A stretch of 20,742 nucleotides of DNA from Armatimonadia bacterium (GTDB taxonomy: Bacteria; Armatimonadota; Zipacnadia; Zipacnadales; UBA11051): contig JBDKRC010000253.1 of NCBI GenBank assembly GCA_039683575.1, positions 1 through 20,742 on the forward strand, written 5' to 3'. Position numbers and translations under genes: made by a program. The notes beneath the pieces are model-generated. The model saw nothing but the letters and a program-made list of their open reading frames with translations. It ran no database searches and was not told the origin of the DNA. Below are positions 12,648 through 12,875 of the stretch, piece after piece; position 1 is the stretch's first letter; every line of letters begins with the position of its first letter.

Positions 12648-12875
12648 ATTCCTTTGGCTCTACCTTGCGAAATGCGAGTTATCACGACCTCAAGCAACTG
12701 TACGAGTTGCAAAGGACTTCTCGGTCCGCGAGCGGCGACCAAGCTACGCGACGGCATCGGTTACCGGGGTCGGTTACGATCTACCGCTCGCCTCACGCCA
12801 CGCCCGTCGGAGTGCCGTGAGCGACCCGAAGGTCGGTCCGAGAAACATGTCACCATAGTATCAAAGAACGCTGCT
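12648..12875 (-). ncRNA. Predicted bridge RNA (target-binding and donor-binding loops); ends approximate
   Basis: Read on the - strand, AACCGACC (12768-12775) and GCGTAG (12744-12749) sit in an internal loop closed by GCGAGCGG/CCGCTCGC and match the target AACCGAC-CT-ACGC. TACAGTTGCTTG (12691-12702) and CAAG (12664-12667) sit in a loop closed by TCCTTTG..CTC/GAG.CAAAGGA and match the donor junction ACAGTTG-CT-TG. Confidence 0.85.

Follow-up and report, generated by a model that had tools for sequence, protein, structure and literature searches.

Does the non-coding end of an IS110-family element from an Armatimonadia bacterium encode an RNA that addresses both the repeat in which the element sits and the joined ends of the element itself? 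The locus lies on contig JBDKRC010000253.1 of assembly GCA_039683575.1, whose whole stretch of 20,742 nt we analysed (hereafter the window). The element, 1,212 bp long, occupies the minus strand of the window, and coordinates are given below in the direction of that strand unless they are written in ascending order. An original prediction, made from the letters of the sequence, had placed at 12648-12875 a readable bridge RNA programmed for a repetitive extragenic palindromic (REP) target and for the donor junction. We conclude that the element is very probably an intact insertion sequence of the IS110 group and that the 12648-12875 region is its bridge-RNA gene. This conclusion builds on the anatomy of the sequence, the family of the protein, an RNA structure kept across homologues, and the covariation, within the same homologues, of guides with targets and donors and of the handshake bases.

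The recombinase gene (12641-11694) is a full-length open reading frame (ORF) of 315 codons, coding for a 315-aa protein. Pfam analyses revealed the domains PF01548 (DEDD_Tnp_IS110, E 3.5e-30, 105.3 bits) and PF02371 (Transposase_20, E 4e-23, 82 bits), both above cut-off, and for the NCBIfam model NF033542 ('IS110 family RNA-guided transposase'), whose cut-off is 140 bits, the protein reached 251. The best-scoring relative of solved structure is ISCro4 (9t56, E 1.4e-47), which we take to be the same element as the IS622 of 10.1101/2025.05.14.653916; residues 5-302 align to it and also to IS621 (8wt6, E 3e-44, 154.7 bits). All five catalytic residues are present: D10, E54, D96, D99 and S234 stand opposite D11, E60, D102, D105 and S241 of IS621 in the alignment, the IS621 residues being named as in PMC11208158. 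The nearest protein named at NCBI, an 'IS110 family transposase' from a Planctomycetota metagenome-assembled genome, is 69% identical, closer relatives (70-98% identical) occur in metagenome assemblies only, and a full-text search of the literature returned no paper joining bridge RNA with Planctomycetes.

Host sequence ending in GTCGGTTCAGGGATGAACCGAC runs up to 12891 and is followed by CT. The left junction reads AACCGAC|CT|TGTAT (12897-12884) and the right junction TACAGTTG|CT|ACGC (11686-11673); the circle junction as originally read was upheld. From left to right, the locus comprises the left target half (LT) AACCGAC (12897-12891), the left copy of the CT core (12890-12889, placed by the junction reading and by comparison with the empty site), a non-coding left end (LE) of 247 nt that begins with TGTATATT and would encode the bridge RNA (12888-12642), the recombinase gene, a right end (RE) of 15 nt ending in ACAGTTG (11693-11679), and the right core copy (11678-11677) with the right target half ACGCATT, the two together spanning 11678-11670. 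The CT core is identical at both junctions and in the empty site, and it is CT in every homologous locus in which the left and right cores could be read. These boundaries are further supported by a contig of 1,221 or 1,222 nt that corresponds exactly to 11673-12892 in two wastewater DNA runs, with 15-16 differences. Its depth is 38 and 33 in the two runs while contigs branching off both of its ends have lower depths of 3.6-26, which suggests that the wastewater communities hold several copies of the element. In relatives of the same clade the LE measures 228-263 nt. An LE of 247 nt together with an RE of 15 nt assigns the element to the IS110 group and not to the IS1111 group.

The empty target reconstructed in the original prediction, AACCGAC-CT-ACGC, proved to be a frequent sequence of the host. 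As the 13-mer AACCGACCTACGC it occurs 34 times in the element's own 6.23-Mb genome, compared to 0.26 expected from composition, and a search of that genome found it uninterrupted in three paralogous copies of the flanking repeat. At all 34 sites a G directly follows the 13-mer and a hairpin precedes it (consensus GTCGGTTCG-rGA-CGAACCGAC), giving the 34-site consensus GTCGGTTCGrGACGAACCGAC+CTACGCG, and the hairpin with CTACGCG often has an inverted GCGTAGG-hairpin copy as its partner. The hairpin at every site and the frequent inverted second hairpin identify a REP-like family, with the element inserted at the 3′ foot of a hairpin. In the window, the sequence and the 34-site consensus delimit a target context of two REP-like hairpins (12944-12891): hairpin 1, GTGGGTTCG-TCT-CGAACCCAC (12944-12924), and hairpin 2, GTCGGTTC-AGGGAT-GAACCGAC (12912-12891), at whose 3′ foot the element lies. 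The window, C109, C294 and C347 also have in common, whole or in part, a longer, composite repeat that measures roughly 100 nt. The occupied right flank (11676-11660) reads CTACGC-ATTGAGG where the empty repeats L004 and L006 read CTACGC-GC-ATTGAGG, and is thus 2 bp shorter.

All four strings listed in the original prediction were recovered on the minus strand, inside 12648-12875 and in the stated order: AACCGACC at 12775-12768, GCGTAG at 12749-12744, TACAGTTGCTTG, with its 12-nt identity to the junction, at 12702-12691, and CAAG at 12667-12664. This is the order of the IS621 guides, contained within the 247-nt LE. None of 20,000 dinucleotide-preserving shuffles of the LE held all four strings. 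Taken singly, the 8-mer of LT plus C appeared in 0.3% of the shuffles, the 10-mer of the left donor half plus CT in 0.015%, GCGTAG in 13% and CAAG in 50%.

Compared with the homologues described below and with the solved IS621 RNA, these strings resolve into guide segments with defined borders. The slot of the left target guide (LTG; 9 nt, AACCGACCC, 12775-12767) reads in the same direction as LT with the first core base added; it follows a conserved linker, CG-U, and is itself followed by one linker base and a short hairpin. The right target guide (RTG; 7 nt, CGCGUAG, 12750-12744) is the reverse complement of CTACGCG, directly follows a conserved G-U linker and matches CTACGCG at 7 of 7 positions in each of the 34 empty sites. 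The left donor guide (LDG) is a conserved 8-mer, ACAGUUGC (12701-12694), that equals the end of RE plus the first core base and matches the donor 8/8, the rest of the 12-nt junction identity (12702-12691) falling on linker positions that are variable among relatives. The right donor guide (RDG) is discontiguous, AU-UUC-G-CAAG (12673-12664): CAAG is complementary to CTTG, the G ahead of it stands opposite T, and AU is the partner of the AT in TGTAT. Handshake positions could also be assigned. In the target-binding loop (TBL) they are CU (12743-12742), of which the family-invariant C could pair with nothing but the G that ends the donor left half; in the donor-binding loop (DBL) they are GU (12663-12662), complementary to the last two bases (AC) of LT.

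An alignment of 68 non-redundant homologous RNA regions yielded a consensus structure in which the TBL has a 9-bp outer stem, a 3-bp extension and a short inner hairpin, the DBL has an outer stem and an inner hairpin of 4 bp each, and all four guide segments lie in unpaired strands. Standard pairs fill 94.0% of its 1,560 cells, compared to 31-43% in controls whose 3′ partners were slid by 1-3 columns; changes on both sides occur in 20 of the 23 pairs, and covariation scores 0.529, where the slid controls give 0.07-0.13. None of 500 shuffles reached any of five structure measures, and the covariance model, R1, scores the window at 92.8 bits. An alternative in which the DBL forms two separate hairpins, with LDG and RDG on display, was rejected as weaker (86.6% paired, score 0.190 against 0.155 shuffled). 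The claim that the guides face each other across internal loops therefore stood for the family consensus and failed for the minimum free energy (MFE) fold of the single sequence, in which they are partly paired. The layout of LTG, RTG, LDG and RDG claimed as that of IS110 bridge RNAs is borne out by the family protein, the covarying RNA structure and the guide-target pairing.

Projected on the window, the predicted bridge RNA would span about 225 nt (12874-12650), with a 5′ end set from the -10 box described below and a 3′ end set from the basal helix of the DBL. A helix termed P0, UUCUCGG (12844-12838) with CCGAGAA (12724-12718), encloses two 5′ hairpins and the TBL; it is kept in six clade members with a full LE, two of its pairs showing compensatory change. 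The 5′ hairpins (12834-12792) are SL1, GACC-UUCG-GGUC (12834-12823), and SL2 (12821-12792). The TBL (12791-12728) consists of the outer stem GCGAGCGG/CCGCUCGC, the extension GAUC/GGUC, the internal loop and an inner hairpin, GGUA-ACCGA-UGCC (12765-12753), and the DBL (12716-12650) of a basal helix, UCCUUUG/CAAAGGA, an outer stem, CUC/GAG, the internal loop and an inner hairpin, UGAG-loop-CUCG. The basal helix of the DBL (12716-12710 with 12656-12650) also holds a Shine-Dalgarno sequence, 8 nt ahead of the recombinase ATG, so folding of the bridge RNA may mask translation of the recombinase. Relatives keep this helix with other sequences, such as CCAUCGA/UCGAUGG in L123 and CCCACCGA/UCGGUGGG in L126.

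The original prediction had proposed that guides be checked for covariation with insertion sites, and such covariation was seen among the homologues. Protein scans provided 43 loci from species genomes (best identity 58%) and 80 from metagenomes, eight of them 68-84% identical. In most of these homologues ACAGTTG or ACGGTTG lies about 60 nt ahead of the start codon and again just past the stop codon. When the five non-core bases of the RTG were compared with the five bases right of the core, the mean match was 4.54/5 over 35 unique pairs (22 perfect, 11 at 4/5 and 2 at 3 or less), against 1.73 ± 0.20 upon permutation; the mean match of the LTG to the left flank was 4.98/7 over 65 unique pairs, against 3.82 ± 0.11. 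In both cases 0 of 10,000 permutations reached the observed value. The LTG was scored at its best offset because loop lengths vary and pattern extraction went wrong at some loci, and such wrong extractions lower the observed guide-flank values.

Other guides, fitting the flanks of the respective locus, are present in relatives at 75-84% amino acid identity. In L051, CCGCGCC matches 7/7 and UCUGUAG stands against CTACAG, while in L052 GUUGUAG stands against CTACAAC; these two loci, L054 and others have the same scaffold and donor guides as the window. The LTGs of the nearest relatives are CCGCGCC, UCCCGCC and CCCCGCC and their RTGs end in UGUAG, and the elements sit in sites of the CCCCGCC-CT-ACAG type, not in AACCGAC-CT-ACGCG. 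The donor side covaries as well: an RDG with CAAG goes with an LE that starts CT-TG and one with CUAG goes with CT-AG, and loci with the LDG ACGGUUG carry an RE ending in ACGGTTG, including L028, L061 and L081. Of 56 unique cases, 53 have a first DBL handshake base that pairs with position 7 of the target; permutation gave 44.3 ± 1.3 and attained the observed count in 0 of 10,000 trials. The TBL handshake C faces a donor G in 89/89 loci.

The two ends of the element carry the halves of a split promoter. Its -35 box, TTGACT (11697-11692), overlaps the stop codon TGA (11696-11694) of the recombinase gene, and its -10 box, TATATT (12886-12881), lies at the start of LE; judged from sequence only, joining RE to LE produces TTGACT-17-TATATT, which agrees with 10 of 12 sigma-70 consensus positions. 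A split promoter with at least 9/12 positions was found in 44 of the 62 relatives with both ends, mostly in the same geometry. No contiguous sigma-70-like promoter was found in the integrated element. A promoter rebuilt across the RE-LE junction is known for IS621 (PMC11208160), integrated copies of which express the RNA weakly (PMC13626964), and the promoter layout of the window fits this behavior.

By analogy with IS621, the element would excise as a circle, and the joining of RE to LE would set TTGACT 17 nt from TATATT, whereupon an RNA of about 225 nt could be transcribed. The DBL, as the second internal loop, would read the circle junction through pairing of the LDG to ACAGTTG+C and of the RDG to CTTG..AT. 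With both loops bound, the DEDD/Ser recombinase would carry out strand exchange at the CT core, where the C of the TBL and the GU of the DBL, as handshake bases, would pair with the swapped strands, and the outcome would be insertion at the 3′ foot of a REP hairpin. On these grounds we infer that the RNA would be transcribed, with the ends predicted above, that the recombinase would bind it and that the system may be active today.

Could the four matches instead reflect chance similarity in a G+C-rich spacer? The frequencies of CAAG and GCGTAG in shuffled LEs agree with such an explanation for the two shorter strings, but the 8-mer and the 10-mer are rare in the same shuffles, the four strings were never found together, and matching strings stand at the same positions in dozens of homologues. 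Guide-flank covariation, the structure counts and the shuffles already refute chance, to which we ascribe a negligible likelihood. It is slightly less far-fetched, yet still highly improbable, that the LE serves just to lead into or regulate the recombinase mRNA from its 5′ side, the matches being terminal sequences recognised by the protein and not RNA guides. The Shine-Dalgarno sequence within UCCUUUG/CAAAGGA means that the fold could regulate translation, and the likeness of the LDG and RDG to the ends of the element is what subterminal repeats would show. Terminal repeats cannot, on the other hand, explain an LTG and an RTG that match sequence outside the element and change with the flanks (65 and 35 unique pairs); moreover, the handshake position tracks the target and not the element, and the region fits the solved IS621 RNA position by position in its linkers, its 9+1-nt LTG slot, its 7-nt RTG slot and its discontiguous RDG. 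A genuine IS110 element with its bridge RNA is the reading with which we proceed.

Several observations nevertheless weigh against an intact bridge-RNA system. Naked RNA of the window sequence has an MFE of -53.8 kcal/mol, compared to -19.0 for the open-loop consensus projected on it, and in the single-sequence ensemble the guides are partly paired, with mean probabilities of being unpaired of 0.27-0.59; the LDG, at 0.27, ranks 4 of 68. Burial of the guides in helices, named in the original prediction as a result that would speak against it, is thus partly seen on the window sequence, but the family-wide medians over the 68 homologues are alike at 0.40-0.46. As the whole family shows partly paired guides and the RNA would act protein-bound, naked-RNA folding does not discriminate. 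A scan of 11500-13100 with Rfam 15, at E up to 10, returned no bridge-RNA family, of which Rfam 15 may hold none, and only two sub-threshold chance matches, CrfA and Acido-Lenti-1. The LTG matches its target at 8 of 9 positions, its ninth base, C, being mismatched with the second core base, T; among 21 distinct well-matched LTGs of the family the dinucleotide that faces the core is CT in 12, CC in 5, CA in 3 and UU in 1. At the occupied site the RTG matches only 6/7, owing to the A at 11672, the 2-bp shorter flank having cost one match. The contigs of two metatranscriptomic libraries that cover the element (11673-12891 and 11848-12796) give neither strand nor RNA ends and may stem from DNA carry-over. 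Neither a circle junction nor a precise-excision joint is listed in four public runs; as these runs are contigs, that absence means little. Apparent skips in run contigs at 12030-12196 and 12215-12601 were set aside, since their sides measure 20 nt and other organisms are their probable source.

Part of this evidence bears on whether the copy still moves. It is unlikely, though the least so of these alternatives, that a genuine IS110 element with its bridge RNA persists here as a fixed, immobile relic in its own genome. Such a relic would account for the single full copy in that genome, the imperfect RTG match beside a shortened right flank, the LTG mismatch at the second core base and the missing circle or excision joint, and a decayed relative, C87, lies in the same genome with its recombinase gene cut after about 20 codons. 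Against it stand the full-length ORF with its five catalytic residues, the intact guides, both handshake positions and both promoter hexamers, and the 34 perfect empty targets that are still available; in addition, near-identical copies (15-16 differences over about 1,220 nt) at depths of 38 and 33 suggest several copies in wastewater. We therefore retain an intact element as the preferred reading.

One further match lies outside the four guides. The 9-mer ACCGACCUU (ACCGACCTT as DNA) in SL1, at 12837-12829, is a copy of the integrated left junction: it equals LT bases 2-7, the CT core and the first base of LE, and so holds the CU core that is missing from the LTG. It appeared in 0.125% of LE shuffles. 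Among 66 loci the window alone has a 9-nt copy of its left junction, and a copy of at least 9 nt arose in 1 of 300 family-wide permutations. A left-junction copy in the 5′ domain is not a feature of the family, the mean longest match being 3.52 compared to 3.45 upon permutation. The 9-mer may be chance, and we consider it very unlikely to be either a third, previously undescribed address of the bridge RNA of this lineage or a trace of guide re-writing. Were it real, the copy in SL1 could help the complex to find the integrated left end when the element excises, could restrain the LTG by mimicking its target internally, or could be the footprint of LTG re-writing to a new REP target; the additional address, together with P0 enclosing SL1, SL2 and the TBL, would then make a structural variant of the bridge-RNA plan.

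The neighbourhood of the element and related loci furnished further observations. A gene for a GNAT acetyltransferase lies upstream and one of the Antibiotic_NAT (aminoglycoside 3-N-acetyltransferase) family downstream, at 13007-13501 and 10697-11494, respectively, both on the minus strand; the likely start of the latter is about 180 nt past RE, on the same strand as the element. The REP hairpin followed by the T-rich start of LE scores as terminator-like. Runs X1-X4, which hold at least half of the element's words, are wastewater metagenomes and metatranscriptomes from one study; in them the element is about 99% identical and the window's unique flanks are absent (depth 0 at 11450-11617). The covariance model picked out two more loci in the element's own genome: a bridge-RNA-like locus (L002, G000:C71:1096-1239, 87.9 bits) precedes an IS110 gene of 56% identity that is truncated where its contig ends, and an orphan left end (L131, G000:C87:8178-8322, 84.4 bits) stands before the truncated recombinase gene mentioned above. 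The guides of both differ from those of the window. In two relatives, L007 and L105, CAGTTGC makes up the 7 bases to the left of the core; ahead of LE, L007 runs on with the segment that codes for the LDG in a partial second copy, CCCGAACAGTTGCC, and TGGCAGACC is duplicated 116 nt apart. Such an arrangement resembles the outcome of recombination into the guide-coding DNA of the element itself, or of a tandem duplication there.

Every sequence-level feature of an IS110-group bridge system that we looked for is present at this locus. In all likelihood the window holds a genuine bridge RNA and recombinase that form an uncharacterised example of the class, although the orthologue tables of PMC11208160, in which the class is catalogued over thousands of orthologues with 5,511 ncRNA-target pairs, might already list its clade. 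The mechanism is already known and is unchanged by this element. What the locus adds is a compact natural bridge-recombinase orthologue (1.2 kb, 315 aa) with target and donor readable straight from the sequence, and a natural 7-nt RTG and two-base handshake complementarity, which are features that were engineered into IS621. Its relatives at 75-84% identity show how guides are re-written from one repeat family to another. In the host genome the element accounts for one insertion into a REP family, of which 34 perfect landing sites remain.

The closest system for comparison is IS621 of E. coli, as described in PMC11208160 and PMC11208158. Both elements have a two-domain DEDD/Ser recombinase with the same catalytic residues, a long LE, a short RE, a CT core and the TBL before the DBL, and they share a discontiguous RDG (AU..G-CAAG), handshake bases and a promoter rebuilt across RE-LE. 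Both target the foot of a REP hairpin, with a right target that begins CT-AC. The kinship of the recombinases is only at the level of the family (154.7 bits, E 3e-44), and the specificity differs. The natural target of IS621 is ATCAGGC-CT-AC (PMC11208160), so its left target is ATCAGGC where that of the window element is AACCGAC, followed on the right by CTACGC(G). With the nearest named protein at 69% identity, this agrees with the original view of an orthologue of a known class with another target specificity. The IS621 donor string given in that prediction has no match in the main text of PMC11208160, figures aside. The wild-type RTG of IS621 has 4 nt and was extended by engineering whereas that of the window element naturally has 7, the ninth LTG base is unpaired with the core in the window element, and the IS621 RNA of 177 nt contrasts with a predicted RNA of about 225 nt with two 5′ hairpins and P0.

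Among other relatives, ISCro4 (PDB 9t56), compared by protein only, is the best structural relative of the recombinase. The IS1111 group with its seekRNA (PMC13604230) shares the recombinase superfamily and the RNA-guided logic but has a short LE and a long RE (PMC11208160), whereas in the window the RNA would be encoded in a 247-nt LE and the RE has 15 nt. ISPpu10 of Pseudomonas putida, grouped here with ISPpu9 (PMC12288879) among the closest systems, has all of its insertions in copies of one conserved intergenic repeat according to bioRxiv 10.64898/2026.03.19.712850. That repeat carries a G+C-rich stem-loop 5′ of the paired sequence, and similarly the LT of the window element is the 3′ arm of the REP hairpin; the two elements use different hosts and different repeat families.

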